Shown: positions 17,098 through 22,266 of the stretch, in pieces
How positions within the stretch are numbered: position 1 is the first letter of the stretch
Layout of the letters: each line of letters opens with the position of its first letter
NCBI GenBank assembly: GCA_964538435.1
Contig: CAZIDX010000005.1
Coordinates: 35,802-73,110 of the forward strand
Length of the DNA: 37,309 nt
Reading direction: 5' to 3'
From: an uncultured Gammaproteobacteria bacterium
GTDB taxonomy: Bacteria; Patescibacteriota; Patescibacteriia; UBA9934; GWF2-40-263
Notes under the pieces: model-generated
What the model was told of the DNA's origin: nothing
The model's input: the letters and a program-made list of their open reading frames with translations, nothing else
Databases searched by the model: none
Position numbers and translations under genes: made by a program

Positions 17098-18597
<1,500 letters not shown>

Positions 18598-18737: not shown

Positions 18738-18768
18738 CGGCGAAAGCCGGGTTTTTTGTTGTATCAAA
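18738..18768 (+). terminator. intrinsic terminator directly after 16S (no ITS tRNA, no 23S)
   Basis: CCCGGC-GAAA-GCCGGG then TTTTTTGTTGTATC. Confidence 0.7.
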
Positions 18769-18792: not shown

Positions 18793-19650
18793 TTATTTGT
18801 TTTTTATTACCTTTACTACTTTATTATCTGGATCAGGATTTCCATCTGGGAATGAAACGACTCTGTACTCTTTGCATGAAGCAAATATCTTTTTTGAAAC
18901 ACGCCCTTCAAAAATCTCTTCGGGGACATAGGGGGTCAGTTCCAAATCGTTGAAAACTGAGATGATTGGAATCCAGATCCAAGTTCGTTCACCCCGAGTT
19001 AGGTTGTTGAAGTCTTGCAGAATAAATAGGAACAAGGCTAGTGTTGTGGCAAGGATTGGAATAGTAATCAGCATGAAGATAGAGCCGTCGTTTTGCAGAA
19101 AAAGGCAAATCCAGATCACAACAATGAGCGCAAAAAGGCTTCCCCATTCATGCTTAGACATCTTTGATTTCACTAGGTGCGAAATTTCTCTACTGTTTCG
19201 CATAACAGCCTCGATATGCCCTATTGCATAGTATGCTGCGTGGTTTTGCATAACAGTGCGTGGACGCAGATCAAGCACGAAGTCATTAAGCTTGAGAAGT
19301 GTTCTTGTGGATTTATCGATGTCTTCCAACCTATAATCGAGTTGCAAAATGAAATGATCTTCGATCAGCTTGAGGCACTTCTTACTCTTGGTTTTCCCAA
19401 ACAGTGAGACTGATCGGTACAAATGAAGTAAACGTGCATCATTTTCTCGGAGTCGTGTTCGAATCTGTGATATTCTCCTATTCCGTCCCGAGAGCAAGAA
19501 CCCCACAATAATTGCGAAGGTGAATGTTGTAATTGAAAGAACAATAGTAACAATCTCAGAATCGACACGTGGTTGAGGCAAAACAAAATACACCGCCAGG
19601 TATATGAGGTAAAAGAATGGGATTTGAAAAGCCGTTTTCCTCCATGACAT
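18793..19650 (-). CDS. multi-pass membrane protein, hypothetical
   Basis: 285 aa, several hydrophobic helices, about 35% GC. Flanked by 18-nt direct repeats GGGTTTTTTGTTGTATC (18749-18765 and 19718-19735). Confidence 0.6.
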   Translation of the reverse strand: MSWRKTAFQIPFFYLIYLAVYFVLPQPRVDSEIVTIVLSITTFTFAIIVGFLLSGRNRRISQIRTRLRENDARLLHLYRSVSLFGKTKSKKCLKLIEDHFILQLDYRLEDIDKSTRTLLKLNDFVLDLRPRTVMQNHAAYYAIGHIEAVMRNSREISHLVKSKMSKHEWGSLFALIVVIWICLFLQNDGSIFMLITIPILATTLALFLFILQDFNNLTRGERTWIWIPIISVFNDLELTPYVPEEIFEGRVSKKIFASCKEYRVVSFPDGNPDPDNKVVKVIKNK

Positions 19651-19994
19651 ACTGAAGATAGTTTACCATAATTTGACCAGATATTTTTGAGTGGACCTCA
19701 CCTTCTTGGTGCAAGCTGGGGTTTTTTGTTGTATCTATTGACAAAGAGGGGTTTTTGTGAAAAAGTTTTCAGTTCTCGATTAAGAGAGCGGCCCCTGGAA
19801 AGGAGAGAGGGATGTTCTTCTCGAATTGGGATATGACAGTTCATGCTGCTCAGCAGGTCACTTCGGTCTCTATCAACGATGTACTCCTTCTTGCATGTTA
19901 CTTCCTGATGGCATTGGGGATGTGTCTGAGTGATGGACACACAGGTCTTTTCCGCGCCGGTGTTGTCAGAAATCATCAGAAGGGCAGGTGATCC

Positions 19995-20603
19995 ATGCAA
20001 CGTCTTTTGATTCTGGGTGCTTTCGTGATTGTGGCTGGATGCTGCTGCGCTGAGAGTAATACACCCTTGATGCCACCAGGTGTTCCAGTCACCCCAGAGG
20101 TCGTCGAGACCAACGAGCCCGAGTTCGTTCGTGATGAGCTCAAGGAGCCGCGGCCGTACTCCATGGAGCTGTGTGTGTCTCCGATCACAGATGGTGAGGG
20201 GCAGATCCATGTTCACGCGCAGCAGATGGCAGACTTCTGCAACGACTACGAGTATGTGGATGTGACCCCAGGCGACAACTGGAGTTGCGGCACATACAAC
20301 CTGATCGAGTCGGATGCAAACTGCTTGCTGGATCGACCCGTAACCATGTTCATCAGCAGTATGGGCTGGGTCGAGTACGACACACTTCGTGTTCGCACGA
20401 CTCGCTGGTGCGAAGAGGATAGTGACTACTGCACGGACTTAATCACACTCCCCTCAGTGGGCGGAGGCAAGTTCGTCTTCATGGCGGACCTGCAGATTCC
20501 TCACATTACGCTGGGGCAGGATCCTCCGAAGGAATCTGTAGCGAGTGGGGCCGAGCCAACCTCTGAGGCCCATGACCTTCTCGAGAACGAGCATCTGCGC
20601 TAA
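19995..20603 (+). CDS. lipoprotein, hypothetical (Cys-rich)
   Basis: Signal + lipobox MQRLLILGAFVIVAGCC. High GC. Followed by hairpin ACGGACCC-CCA-GGGTCCGT + TTTCTTATT terminator at 20612-20640. Confidence 0.6.
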   Translation: MQRLLILGAFVIVAGCCCAESNTPLMPPGVPVTPEVVETNEPEFVRDELKEPRPYSMELCVSPITDGEGQIHVHAQQMADFCNDYEYVDVTPGDNWSCGTYNLIESDANCLLDRPVTMFISSMGWVEYDTLRVRTTRWCEEDSDYCTDLITLPSVGGGKFVFMADLQIPHITLGQDPPKESVASGAEPTSEAHDLLENEHLR

Positions 20604-20747
20604 GCGCGCAACGGACGGACCCCCAGGGTCCGTTTTCTTATTAATGTACTCACCTTACTTGCCGCACTTTTCTACCCAAACTTTAATCCTCACCCTTGAC
20701 AGCACTTCGAATCCCTGGCATTCCGAATTGGTAAGATGGCAATGTAA

Positions 20748-20781
20748 CCACTAAAGGACCGATCGGACCTTATATGGATAG
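20748..20781. repeat. 34-bp perfect direct repeat, copy 1 (CCACTAAAGGACCGATCGGACCTTATATGGATAG)
   Basis: Identical copy at 21302-21335. Copy 1 contains the start codon of the enclosed gene. Confidence 0.9.
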
Positions 20782-21298
20782 AAGAACACGAAAAACCAAG
20801 CACGGCTCAAGAGCCTCTGATATTCTTCTGGAGCTTCTCAATGCAACAGATCTGCTTTTTGAAAATATTCATCAGCCTGGCCTTGCTTTTCGCTACGGTT
20901 TAGAGAACGCAATCGAGATTCGAAACAATCGGGAACGGTGGTTACAAAATCGAGAAGTAAAACGTCTTGAAAAACGGAAGCTGGTTGAAATAAACAAAAT
21001 CGCCGATAAGTATCATGTTTGTTTAACAGACGAAGGTAAAATCGAGGCGCTTCGACTTGCAATACTTGAAGCTAATCTTCTACCTGAGGGACAGGACTGT
21101 ATTGTGATGTTTGATATCCCTGAATCAAAACGCAAGCTACGAAAACAAATCCGAGAGCTATTAAAAGAAGCTGGGTTCTTTTGTATCCAAAGAAGCGTCT
21201 GGATGTCTCCTTTTGATGCAGCCGAAGCTTTTTCAGCGTACTTCAGATCAGTTAACGGCCATGATCGGGTGCGGGTGTATACTGGCGTTAGATGTTAA
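20774..21298 (+). CDS. winged-HTH protein with Cas2-like C-terminal domain (PaaX-like?)
   Basis: N-terminal wHTH (LEKRKLVEINK...LTDEGK). C-terminus VMFDIPESKRKLRKQIRELLKEAGFFCIQRSVWMS resembles the Cas2 motif hhhYDI..kRr.kl.k.L..yG.rvQnSVf. About 42% GC inside a high-GC block. Confidence 0.5.
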   Translation: MDRRTRKTKHGSRASDILLELLNATDLLFENIHQPGLAFRYGLENAIEIRNNRERWLQNREVKRLEKRKLVEINKIADKYHVCLTDEGKIEALRLAILEANLLPEGQDCIVMFDIPESKRKLRKQIRELLKEAGFFCIQRSVWMSPFDAAEAFSAYFRSVNGHDRVRVYTGVRC

Positions 21299-21301
21299 TA
21301 T

Positions 21302-21335
21302 CCACTAAAGGACCGATCGGACCTTATATGGATAG
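21302..21335. repeat. 34-bp direct repeat copy 2
   Basis: Perfect match to 20748-20781. Followed by a truncated duplicate start (MDRLELHN...). Confidence 0.9.
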
Positions 21336-21423
21336 GCTTGAACTTCACAATCCATCAAGTGATCCACAATGCCAATATTGACAATTACCTTCTTCCTTGT
21401 TGCAATACAAGTAACCCTATCCT

Positions 21424-21460
21424 CCCCGTCTGCGCATAGTGCGCGGTCGGGGTTTTTCGT
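21424..21460 (+). terminator. intrinsic terminator
   Basis: CCCCGTCTGCGCATAGTGCGCGGTCGGGG then TTTTTCGTT. Confidence 0.55.
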
Positions 21461-21483
21461 TCCTTTCACAACTGGAGTGTGAT

Positions 21484-22266
21484 ATGCGACATCTGATTCT
21501 CGTACTCTTTTTCCTGATCCCGAGCCCTGTGTGGGCTCAAAGTGATCAAGATGATGGGTTGCTTTGGGTTGCCCTGAATCTTGTAGACGCGCTTGAGCCT
21601 GGGCAACCAGTGATCGAGAGCGACTGGACGATTCCCTGCTCTGAGCAGAACACGCTCGATCCCCTACCTCACGGCTTTTCGCTCGAGCATGCTGATCGAG
21701 AGCTACCAAACGAACTTTGCGAGAGCGCGCTCGATGTGCGTGTGGGCGGCTGGATCAATGACCAGTTCGTGTTTTGCCGAACACTGTGGTGGCAACCAGG
21801 ACAGGACGGCACGAACATGATTGGGATCCCGCGCGAAGGGACTCGGACTGTGAAGATCGTCTTGCCTGAGAAAATCCAGATTGGTCAGGAGGTGTACCAG
21901 GCTCCTGAGCAAATCTTACTGCGCCCAACCGGAGTTGAGCGGATCGTGGAGATCGATGTGGAGCTGCGGCGTCTACCGTCAGTAGATCTCGTTGTGGATG
22001 CAGAGCATGCAGACCCGCGCGAGCTACTGGATGCTCGCGCAATCTGGGTTACGGATTCGAGAGCATTCCTTGATCTCGATCTGTTCACGATCAGAGCTCC
22101 GCGAGGGTTTGCACTTGAGGCAGAGGCTACAGATCGGTTTGGGCTTACGCGCTCAATCACGCCCGCTGTACGTCCTGCTGTGTACGTAGATCTCTACGGA
22201 TACTACGGTTGGAGCTTTCAGGTTCGCGTGGTGCCCAAACACCCTGAGCACACTGCAAAACGATAA
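21484..22266 (+). CDS. secreted hypothetical protein
   Basis: GGAGTG RBS. Signal peptide MRHLILVLFFLIPSPVWAQS. High GC. The 275-aa ORF-track call is trimmed. Confidence 0.6.
   Translation: MRHLILVLFFLIPSPVWAQSDQDDGLLWVALNLVDALEPGQPVIESDWTIPCSEQNTLDPLPHGFSLEHADRELPNELCESALDVRVGGWINDQFVFCRTLWWQPGQDGTNMIGIPREGTRTVKIVLPEKIQIGQEVYQAPEQILLRPTGVERIVEIDVELRRLPSVDLVVDAEHADPRELLDARAIWVTDSRAFLDLDLFTIRAPRGFALEAEATDRFGLTRSITPAVRPAVYVDLYGYYGWSFQVRVVPKHPEHTAKR

Follow-up and report, generated by a model that had tools for sequence, protein, structure and literature searches.

The repeat pair and the enclosed gene

The window analysed here, a 37,309-nt stretch of contig CAZIDX010000005.1 (assembly GCA_964538435.1), contained two copies of a palindromic repeat that enclosed a single gene for a small protein with a winged helix and a Cas2-like domain. 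The protein was named mini-PaaX, and the unit was arranged as follows.

20745..20781, no strand: upstream palindrome copy, centred at 20762/20763 on CGATCG; its right arm holds the start codon.
20774..21298, + strand: mini-PaaX gene, 174 amino acids (aa); winged helix at residues ~13-98, Cas2-like/PaaX_M domain at ~107-172, PaaX_C absent.
21299..21335, no strand: downstream palindrome copy, centred at 21316/21317; it starts one base past the TAA stop codon at 21296-21298.

The 34-mer CCACTAAAGGACCGATCGGACCTTATATGGATAG was found exactly twice in the window, at 20748-20781 and 21302-21335, both on the + strand and 554 bp apart from start to start, and 0 of 100 dinucleotide-preserving shuffles of the window contained a match. 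When extended, the two copies were identical at 36 of 37 positions (20745-20781 versus 21299-21335). The repeat was itself an imperfect palindrome of 36 bp around the centre CGATCG, with the halves TATCCACTAAAGGACCGA and TCGGACCTTATATGGATA, and only these two copies were present in the 37 kb (at up to three mismatches or at least 70% identity). Since the ATG and the next five bases formed the right outer arm of the palindrome, copy 2 also appeared to start an open reading frame (ORF). The sole sequence that copy 2 had in common with the real gene was ATGGATAG, which was followed by an unrelated frame of 17 codons that was not conserved in the orthologous locus L001, an independent Tara Oceans scaffold. 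The perfect identity of the two copies, which included the non-palindromic bases, suggests recent gene conversion between functionally tied sites. An assembly artefact was rejected because the same layout was found in the independent assemblies of relatives, and a CRISPR mini-array was rejected because there were just two repeats with a “spacer” of 0.5 kb.

The mini-PaaX protein and its family

Pfam analysis of the 174-aa protein revealed a PaaX_M domain (PF20803) at residues 109-171 (E 3.3e-15, 56.4 bits, cut-off 24) and a match to CRISPR_Cas2 (PF09827) slightly over its cut-off (E 1.6e-5), and the N-terminal half gave a winged-helix match below the threshold. The NCBIfam cas2 equivalog TIGR01573 scored 34.5 bits (cut-off 24.5). 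In the AlphaFold2 model, with a predicted local distance difference test (pLDDT) score of 83, a helix, a recognition helix and a beta-wing were followed by a ferredoxin-like beta-alpha-beta-beta-alpha-beta domain, and the best structural match in the fold comparison was PaaX of E. coli (PaaX PDB 8a39, 3l09). The sequence search of the PDB returned marginal matches to Cas2 and Toprim alone (E>0.1), PHROGs had no match, and PADLOC showed Cas2 models and weak CARF matches, nothing else. PaaX_C (PF08223) was not matched; the protein stopped at residue 174, right after PaaX_M, and this domain was carried only by distant relatives of 231-258 aa. The protein is thus a regulator-like, PaaX-type combination of a winged helix and a Cas2 fold, a “mini-PaaX”.

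The family comprised 1616 clusters at 50% identity (E<=1e-3). It was mostly drawn from Patescibacteria, to which the named members belonged (Uhr-, Davies-, Doudna- and Saccharibacteria, and Parcubacteria), and their public names were often “CRISPR-associated endonuclease Cas2” or “PaaX”; the former arose because the curated cut-offs of TIGR01573 and PF09827 were passed. In the family alignment, all five invariant residues and eight of the ten near-invariant residues were located in the Cas2-like half, and the winged-helix half was variable. No members were found in viral contigs, phage records or plasmid records, and a full-text search of the literature found no description of the family or of its bracket. 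The CRISPR context was also missing: there was no CRISPR-like array in the window (TRF and repeat search), no cas1 among the 30 large ORFs of the window that were scanned, and no cas gene in the 27 related loci. The paa genes were found neither in the window nor in any related locus.

Much of the initial annotation agreed with these results. It had described the 34-bp repeat occurring twice at a distance of 554 bp (exact matches at 20748 and 21302), a gene start within the first copy (ATG at 20774), a C-terminal Cas2 fold joined to a winged helix (now supported by the PaaX_M, CRISPR_Cas2 and TIGR01573 matches and the AlphaFold2 model), and the lack of a CRISPR array or cas1 nearby. Its idea of a Cas2-like regulator was also consistent with the winged helix, PaaX_M and the absent CRISPR context, which point to a regulator-like protein of the PaaX type. 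Among the profiles it had proposed, those of Cas2 (PF09827 and TIGR01573) scored above their cut-offs and PaaX_C (PF08223) was negative. Its statement that repeat 2 opens a truncated duplicate ORF was not sustained, as only ATGGATAG was common and the remaining frame was unrelated and not conserved in L001. The 34-mer was also not the 5' end of a multi-copy gene family, for which the annotation had left room, since the window held one gene of the mini-PaaX family.

Palindromes bracket the homologous genes

Homologous loci were obtained by exact-protein look-up and pattern scans. The scan of genome contigs with the narrow alignment A1 found no relatives and that with alignment A2 found six loci, and the scan of metagenomes found three loci only. 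Eighteen homologous modules, independent of one another, made up the sample; they came from Uhr-, Davies-, Doudna- and Saccharibacteria and from marine relatives and occupied at least eight gene neighbourhoods. In each, the 150 nt before the start codon were compared with the 150 nt after the stop codon. The results showed that 17 of the 18 modules had a two-copy bracket of near-palindromes of 30-44 bp. In the exception, L019, only the upstream palindrome was present, and the gene overlapped uvrC. The centre of the palindrome was conserved as CGATCG, CGGCCG or CGTACG, whereas the arms were private to the lineage and the paralogue. The copies within a module were on average 82% identical versus 42% between modules, and the proteins of different modules were only 25-75% identical, so the palindromes co-varied with lineage and paralogue. 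Examples are listed below by locus.

L001: CCATATAATGAACGGCCGTACATGATATGG (protein 75% identical in aa, Tara Oceans)
L003: GATACCATTTAAGTGCCGATCGGACCTTAAGTGGTATC
L009: TTTTGTACGATTTCCGTCGATCGACGGAAATCGTACAAAA (perfect, 40 bp)
L015: GCTGAACTAAGTGTCCGATCGGACACTTAGTTCAGC
L026: TCGAACCTCACACAAGGGCCGATCGGCCCTTGTGTGAGGTTCGA (perfect, 44 bp)
L022: CCCTATGTTCAGCGATCGCTTAAATTAGGG
L023: CCCATATTCCCATTTGTTGACGATAGCTTACAATTGGGAATATGGG
L027: TGCGTACTTTTTAATACGGCCGTACAAAAAAGTACGCA

The palindromes were close to the ends of the gene. The centre of the upstream palindrome was located 10-44 nt ahead of the ATG in the 14 modules measured, and that of the downstream palindrome 4-41 nt past the stop codon in 13 of 14, the remaining one (L015) lying 43 nt within the annotated ORF end. 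As a control, flank-repeat scores were computed for 116 genes from six loci; five of the six highest belonged to family genes (34.5, 25.5, 22.5, 22.5 and 18.5; median 8), and the sixth family gene, that of L009 with a mis-set start, scored 14.5. The copies were mostly in direct orientation, and in L003 the core was inverted between the two copies. Paralogues of one genome (L015 and L026 of GCA_016187485.1; L017a and L017b) had private arms and no cross-sites. The related loci of 20 kb contained the bracket copies only, save one extra site in L012.

The gene neighbourhoods were diverse. In the window and in L001 the module was located past the 16S gene and ahead of a gene for a secreted protein of 260 aa, and elsewhere it preceded a V-type ATPase operon or glyA, was placed between uvrA and uvrC, adjoined Mur ligase genes, or stood between a transfer RNA (tRNA) gene and rpmG (ribosomal protein L33). 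The two copies of L001 had diverged (22 of 30 positions identical) while the gene stood at the equivalent place before the same 260-aa gene, which indicates that the arrangement is old. Taken across the modules, these comparisons mark the palindrome as a conserved cis element tied to the protein.

Predicted promoters and the downstream copy

The following features surrounded the unit in the window. The statements on promoters refer to conserved extended -10-like boxes spotted by eye.

20613..20635, + strand: intrinsic terminator of the upstream 202-aa gene.
20696..20701, + strand: TTGACA hexamer, conserved in L001 and L004; 30 nt before the TAAGAT box, a non-canonical spacing.
20729..20737, + strand: putative extended -10 TGgTAAGAT; the inferred transcription start at ~20744-20746 would be the left edge of the upstream palindrome.
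21293..21301, + strand: TGtTAATAT, extended -10-like; overlaps the stop codon and abuts the downstream palindrome; speculative, and inconsistent in other modules.
21378..21406, + strand: promoter-like TTGACA-N17-TGCAAT of the 260-aa gene, conserved with L001; ~60 nt past the downstream palindrome.
21424..21457, + strand: leader stem-loop CCCCG...CGGGG followed by T5, between this promoter and the 260-aa gene; conserved with L001.
21484..22266, + strand: gene for the 260-aa secreted protein, no Pfam family, high GC; syntenic module partner in L001 and L002.

Because of the terminator after the 202-aa gene, the mini-PaaX gene is a separate transcription unit. The extended -10 box had counterparts at the same distance in L001 (TGtTAAGAT) and L004 (TGtTACGAT). 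In L027 and L012 the palindrome was found directly past a TATAAT box, in L008 and L009 farther downstream of one, and in L017a between TTGACA and TGgTATATT. Relative to the predicted promoters, these positions are of the repressor type.

The surroundings of the downstream copy varied. In L012 it ended 7 nt ahead of the uvrC ATG, and a third, perfect copy (7255-7288) ended 11 nt ahead of the true uvrA ATG; the resulting order, uvrB-[site]-uvrA-[site]-regulator-[site]-uvrC, resembles a local regulon of small size. The gene after the downstream copy was glyA in L009 and L008. The sole universal property of the downstream copy was that it adjoined the stop codon of the regulator.

Several further elements were observed at these borders. 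The leader stem-loop of the 260-aa gene, whose L001 counterpart was located with its promoter at ~935-1000, showed changes within the stem between the window and L001, was separate from the repeat and matched no Rfam family; it is a possible attenuator, terminator-like element or cis-regulatory RNA. A conserved leader of ~330 nt extended from the downstream palindrome to the first gene of the V-ATPase operon in L003 (1200-1540) and L004 (10500-10840), with a TTGACC-N17-TACACT promoter and a structured-looking segment, GGTTGTCTGGTG...CCAGACGACCC, that had no significant match in Rfam. A solo palindrome of the same class with other arms, AAGCACATAACCGTCGATCGACGGTTATGTGCTG (symmetric at 13 of 14 positions), was located at ~19377-19410 of L004 (GCA_900089805.1), where it separated the final gene for the V-ATPase from a convergent gene with an HD domain; the family had no gene nearby, and the palindrome is a possible target of another paralogue or a bidirectional terminator. 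In L012, which belongs to the Uhrbacteria, the canonical N-terminus of UvrA (MQDKIVIKGAREH..., 7292-7400) was encoded directly past the third palindrome and met unrelated sequence ~90 nt ahead of position 7384, the annotated start of uvrA; possible causes are a frameshift, an insertion of small size or a start called at the wrong place.

Symmetry of the palindromes and a proposed twin-operator model

For the symmetry analysis, 36 sites were aligned by their centres. The C-G at positions 2-3 from the centre was nearly invariant, and the inner tetranucleotide was itself palindromic in most lineages (GATC, GGCC or GTAC). The two-fold symmetry was 0.83-1.0 at positions 1-4, dropped to ~0.5 at positions 5-6 and 11-12, rose again to 0.86-0.92 at positions 13-14, and fell to background by position 20. 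This spacing of the symmetry by one helical turn reads as a periodicity of the contact type rather than as a continuous stem.

The repeats are probably the twin cognate operators of the mini-PaaX repressor that is coded between them, and each palindrome is most likely the binding site of the protein itself. A dimer of the protein would bind to the palindrome, with the Cas2-fold domain as the dimerisation module by analogy to PaaX. The two winged helices would read the lineage-specific outer arms (~±13-18 bp), and the conserved protein core would be placed over the conserved CG-NN-CG centre. In the protein, a conserved Cas2-like half is combined with a variable winged helix, and in the site a conserved centre is combined with variable arms; these matching conservation patterns hint at a Cas2-like dimer over the centre of the site with the winged helices on the arms. 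The 36-bp palindrome of the window spanned the predicted +1 to the ATG, and the operator of PaaX is of the same size class. The upstream site would extend over the ATG, all of the short leader and the predicted start of transcription, so that its occupancy would silence the regulator's own gene (autorepression). The downstream site is most likely a paired or auxiliary operator, which could cooperate with the first site by looping of the ~550-bp gene or could be a roadblock or an insulator at the 3' boundary. Where the next gene follows right after the second site (uvrC, glyA), this site is probably the operator of that gene as well. We infer from the positions of the sites that binding represses transcription and that the downstream copy acts as an auxiliary or paired operator, with regulation of the next gene as a lineage-specific extra.

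A number of observations weigh against this model. A scan for consensus sigma-70 promoters found no canonical -35/-10 pair in the region. In the window and in L001, the downstream copy was ~60 nt upstream of the -35 of the next gene and did not overlap the promoter of that gene. In L017a and L017b the downstream copy was retained although the next gene was convergent, so ordinary control of the downstream gene is not the general role of this copy. Both copies were tight against the ORF ends, which gives the unit a cassette-like look. Perfect palindromes of 34-44 bp were present in L009 (downstream), L015 (upstream), L019 and L026 (upstream); as RNA they reached -27 to -29 kcal/mol, and the hairpins or cruciforms that they would form would be very stable, beyond what protein binding requires. 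The combination of a strongly conserved centre and variable arms would also be expected of a structured element with a recognised loop. Lastly, the search for further sites covered 2-4% of each genome.

Alternative explanations

An element that acts at the level of RNA is unlikely. The palindromes would form hairpins at the 5' and 3' ends of the messenger RNA (mRNA), where they would hide the start codon or else stabilise the transcript or bring it to an end, and the Cas2-fold domain, which is RRM-like and related to RNases, might bind or cut them for post-transcriptional autoregulation. RNase activity has been reported for some Cas2 and VapD proteins. The upstream copy was located in the predicted leader and included or adjoined the ATG, where no well-placed Shine-Dalgarno sequence was found, and the downstream copy was at the position of a terminator. 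The stems co-varied while the “loop” was conserved, and some copies were very stable as RNA (z -6 to -9). However, the copies of the window folded into weak hairpins, at -7.8 kcal/mol (z -1.2) and -11.9 kcal/mol (z -2.2), and the upstream copy of L009 folded no better than shuffled sequence (z +0.47). The would-be loop was self-complementary in most lineages, which argues for a duplex site because the loop of a hairpin needs no self-complementarity, and the pairing was periodic. A hand tally of the listed pair types gave 10 G·T versus 19 A·C mismatches in the arms, and thus no excess of wobble pairs on the sense strand. No U-tract was found past the downstream copy. The palindrome of L017a spanned the -35/-10 region, and the mRNA there would have almost no leader. 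The core orientation was flipped in L003, which is irrelevant for the recognition of a duplex. A permissive search of 20550-21550 against Rfam 15 gave no match at E<=1.

The composition of the gene and its surroundings bear on the explanations that involve mobility. As the initial annotation had stated (~42% and ~56%), the G+C content (GC) of the mini-PaaX gene was 42.3%, and its neighbours were richer, with 56.2% in the 202-aa gene upstream and 55.5% in the 260-aa gene downstream. The GC and the GC at third codon positions (GC3) were 0.42/0.35 for the mini-PaaX gene, 0.44/0.39 for PilB and 0.48/0.41 for S16. The mini-PaaX gene was at the low end of the housekeeping-type genes of the window (S16, PilB/C, TrmD and others; GC 0.44-0.50, GC3 0.39-0.58), whereas the 202-aa and 260-aa genes (GC3 0.57-0.67) belonged to a separate high-GC class, together with a gene like that of the Major Vault Protein (MVP) and the cluster at 1-4400, with GC3 up to 0.87. 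An equal contrast between the mini-PaaX gene and its neighbours was present in L001, and the GC of the gene was lower than that of its locus in 16 of 16 other modules. The mini-PaaX gene is a native-type gene flanked by atypical neighbours, and its low GC is a trait of the family; a foreign low-GC island was rejected, as the composition agreed with that of native genes. The window as a whole was bimodal, with one class at GC3 ~0.30-0.58 (pilus genes, S16, TrmD, a histidine kinase and mini-PaaX) and a second at 0.57-0.87 (secreted and unknown proteins, the MVP-like gene, AAA_5 and the 1-4400 cluster); both were interleaved on one contig, and the contrast was also present in the independent Tara scaffold.

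The initial annotation had favoured a site-specific insertion or duplication with attL/attR-like repeats. This reading was rejected, given the bracket in 17 of 18 modules, the varied neighbourhoods and the dependence of the repeat sequence on the lineage, since an att scar or target-site duplication would not co-evolve with a gene family over such distances. The old synteny with L001 and the native-type GC also spoke against it. No integrase or transposase was found within or beside the unit; the winged helix-Cas2-like gene was the sole gene between the repeats, and the neighbours were the 202-aa and 260-aa secreted proteins, neither in a Pfam family. An integron attC cassette was rejected because none of the loci showed an integrase or an array, a check that did not extend to attC motifs. 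The hunt for empty versus occupied sites that the annotation had proposed gave a negative result in the closest relative, L001, which was occupied with diverged copies and provided no empty site. The other candidate was L018, which lacked the second module of L017 and had no palindrome at that place either, and the flanks beyond the tRNA had diverged, so that the pair is not a clean empty site. These two Daviesbacteria genomes were identical up to a minus-strand tRNA gene (12820-12880) and differed from its anticodon arm on, the second mini-PaaX module and the 23S-rRNA-IVP genes being present in L017 only; the tRNA gene may mark a recombination boundary.

A mobile or selfish cassette is improbable. 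The palindrome-gene-palindrome unit would move or be exchanged as a block, and the palindromes would be hairpin or cruciform ends that the Cas2-fold protein recognises and may nick, like the ends of repetitive extragenic palindromes with their associated tyrosine transposases (REP/RAYT) or of IS200/IS605; in a variant, a circle of 554 bp would be excised through recombination of the direct repeats and re-inserted at solo palindromes. Units between housekeeping genes in many unrelated neighbourhoods, palindromes that abut the ORF ends, several paralogues per genome with private ends each, the gene GC below the locus GC in 16 of 16 other modules and the perfectly identical copies of the window would all fit such a cassette, as would the absence of the second L017 module (tRNA/rpmG) from L018 and the solo palindromes in L012 (7255-7288) and L004 (near 19394). 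However, the solo site of L012 was exactly at the expected position of a uvrA operator, and the “empty” site of L018 had no palindrome and diverged flanks, without a clean excision. The module of the window and L001 was syntenic and old, the modules of one genome shared no ends, multi-copy dispersal was not seen in the 37 kb of the window or in the 20-kb loci, and the family was missing from the viral, phage and plasmid collections. The protein has no known recombinase, transposase or HUH fold, and Cas2 is not known to catalyse strand transfer. We regard it as very improbable that the unit is a self-contained selfish or mobile element, a free-living “Cas2 plus repeats” module whose Cas2-fold protein recognises, and possibly nicks or recombines, its own 34-44-bp palindromes. 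If true, such a module could be related to, or serve as a model for, the ancestral link between Cas2 and CRISPR-type repeats, or it could represent a new minimal class of mobile element in Patescibacteria.

Least credible of all is a non-functional remnant, in which the downstream copy would be the operator and start codon of a lost tandem duplicate, with no more than occasional gene conversion to keep it similar. In favour of this reading, the ATG and non-palindromic flanks are common to both copies (ATGGATAG in the window and ATGGA in L001), and paralogues may sit close together (L017), but a neutral copy would not last beside the stop codon in 17 of 18 modules of 25-75% protein identity, nor would it track the lineage-specific arms of the upstream copy.

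Additional features of the window and related loci

A 17-nt exact direct repeat, GGGTTTTTTGTTGTATC, at 18749-18765 and 19719-19735 flanked a low-GC Bestrophin-like gene on the minus strand (18793-19650). The repeat corresponded to the T-tract of the hairpin after the 16S spacer plus 8 nt. In L001, the 16S spacer and terminator led straight into the mini-PaaX promoter, without the Bestrophin-like gene and the 202-aa gene. The Bestrophin-like gene looks far more like a true insertion with a duplicated target than the mini-PaaX unit does. The 16S ribosomal RNA (rRNA) gene itself (17098-18594) was solitary, with no 23S, 5S or spacer tRNA in the window, and the rRNA genes appear to be unlinked; it was followed by a conserved trailer of ~150 nt and a terminator, common to L001.

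Two other repeated elements were found in the first 5 kb. A hairpin-forming element of ~60 nt, CCACCGATCCGGAGTCGAGT...ACTCGGCTCGGGGTCGGTGG, occurred four times (542-604, 1047-1075, 1704-1762 and 2495-2557) between consecutive minus-strand genes of unknown function with GC3 of 0.75-0.87, and two of its copies, flanking the gene at 1147-1635, were 100% identical over 29 nt. An internally palindromic element of 45 nt, TTGTCTCAACTCAGAGCTC...GAGAGCTGGGTTGAGA, was present at 3711-3755 and 4309-4353, at the edge of the high-GC block, with copies 80% identical and 598 bp apart. Farther on, an S-adenosylmethionine (SAM) riboswitch at 6753-6856 (60.9 bits) preceded an operon at 6959-9681, the first gene of which was MVP-like (MVP shoulder, Vault repeats and SPFH domain) and was followed by PNP_UDP_1, similar to methylthioadenosine/S-adenosylhomocysteine (MTA/SAH) nucleosidase. 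A vault-like protein under SAM control is unusual.

Significance and comparison with known systems

Patescibacteria, or the candidate phyla radiation (CPR), have tiny genomes with few recognisable regulators and no genetics. Under the twin-operator model, each member of a very large family labelled “Cas2” would acquire a function that can be tested and a predicted site on DNA. The flanking palindrome can be read beside each gene and would correct a systematic misannotation that inflates the counts of “orphan Cas2” in CPR genomes, and CPR regulons could be approached through, for example, uvrA/uvrC, glyA and the V-ATPase operon. That a Cas2 fold is paired with palindromes the size of CRISPR repeats is also of evolutionary interest.

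The closest known system is PaaX, a repressor of E. coli and Pseudomonas that responds to phenylacetyl-CoA. The operator of E. coli PaaX is a split palindrome of 39 bp, TGATTC-N27-GAATCA, and PaaX acts by steric hindrance to repress Px, its own promoter (PMC9493321). Both proteins have an N-terminal winged helix followed by a Cas2-like domain, which in PaaX is the middle domain for dimerisation, and the 39 bp of the PaaX operator compare with 30-44 bp for the mini-PaaX palindromes, whose arms at ~±13-18 fit. Unlike PaaX, mini-PaaX lacks the ligand-binding PaaX_C domain and nearby paa genes, and its putative sites are uninterrupted palindromes in which the CG-NN-CG centre is conserved. Two of these sites bracket the gene of the regulator, one of them at the stop codon, and the family has expanded in Patescibacteria with sites private to each paralogue.

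With Cas2, mini-PaaX has in common the fold and the motif vvFDIPE...R..lr..L...GF..iQ.SVW, and its repeats of 34-40 bp are palindromic as are many CRISPR repeats. In the complex of Cas1 and Cas2, the Cas2 dimer is aligned along duplex DNA. In contrast to Cas2, mini-PaaX is fused to a winged helix and had no cas1, CRISPR array or other cas gene in the window or the related loci, and its two repeats surround a gene of 0.5 kb, whereas CRISPR spacers are 30-40 nt. In REP/RAYT systems (REPtrons) and IS200/IS605, one gene for an HUH-Y1 transposase-like protein is flanked by imperfect palindromes of ~35 bp that can form hairpins; REPs number tens to hundreds of dispersed copies, and those flanking the RAYT gene are inverted. 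A single gene between palindrome copies is the likeness to mini-PaaX, which differs by its winged helix and Cas2 fold and by copies that are local and mostly direct.

LacI, GalR and DeoR bind cooperatively to at least two equal palindromic operators that are tens to hundreds of bp apart, at the promoter and inside or beyond the gene. The mini-PaaX pair differs from these in that it encloses exactly the regulator's own coding sequence and has been kept across a phylum-level radiation, and looping between its copies is putative. For a repressor, it is unusual that a second operator is kept precisely at the stop codon throughout a radiation of phylum scale. This placement suggests an undescribed regulatory or insulating geometry or, less likely, a cassette-like unit.

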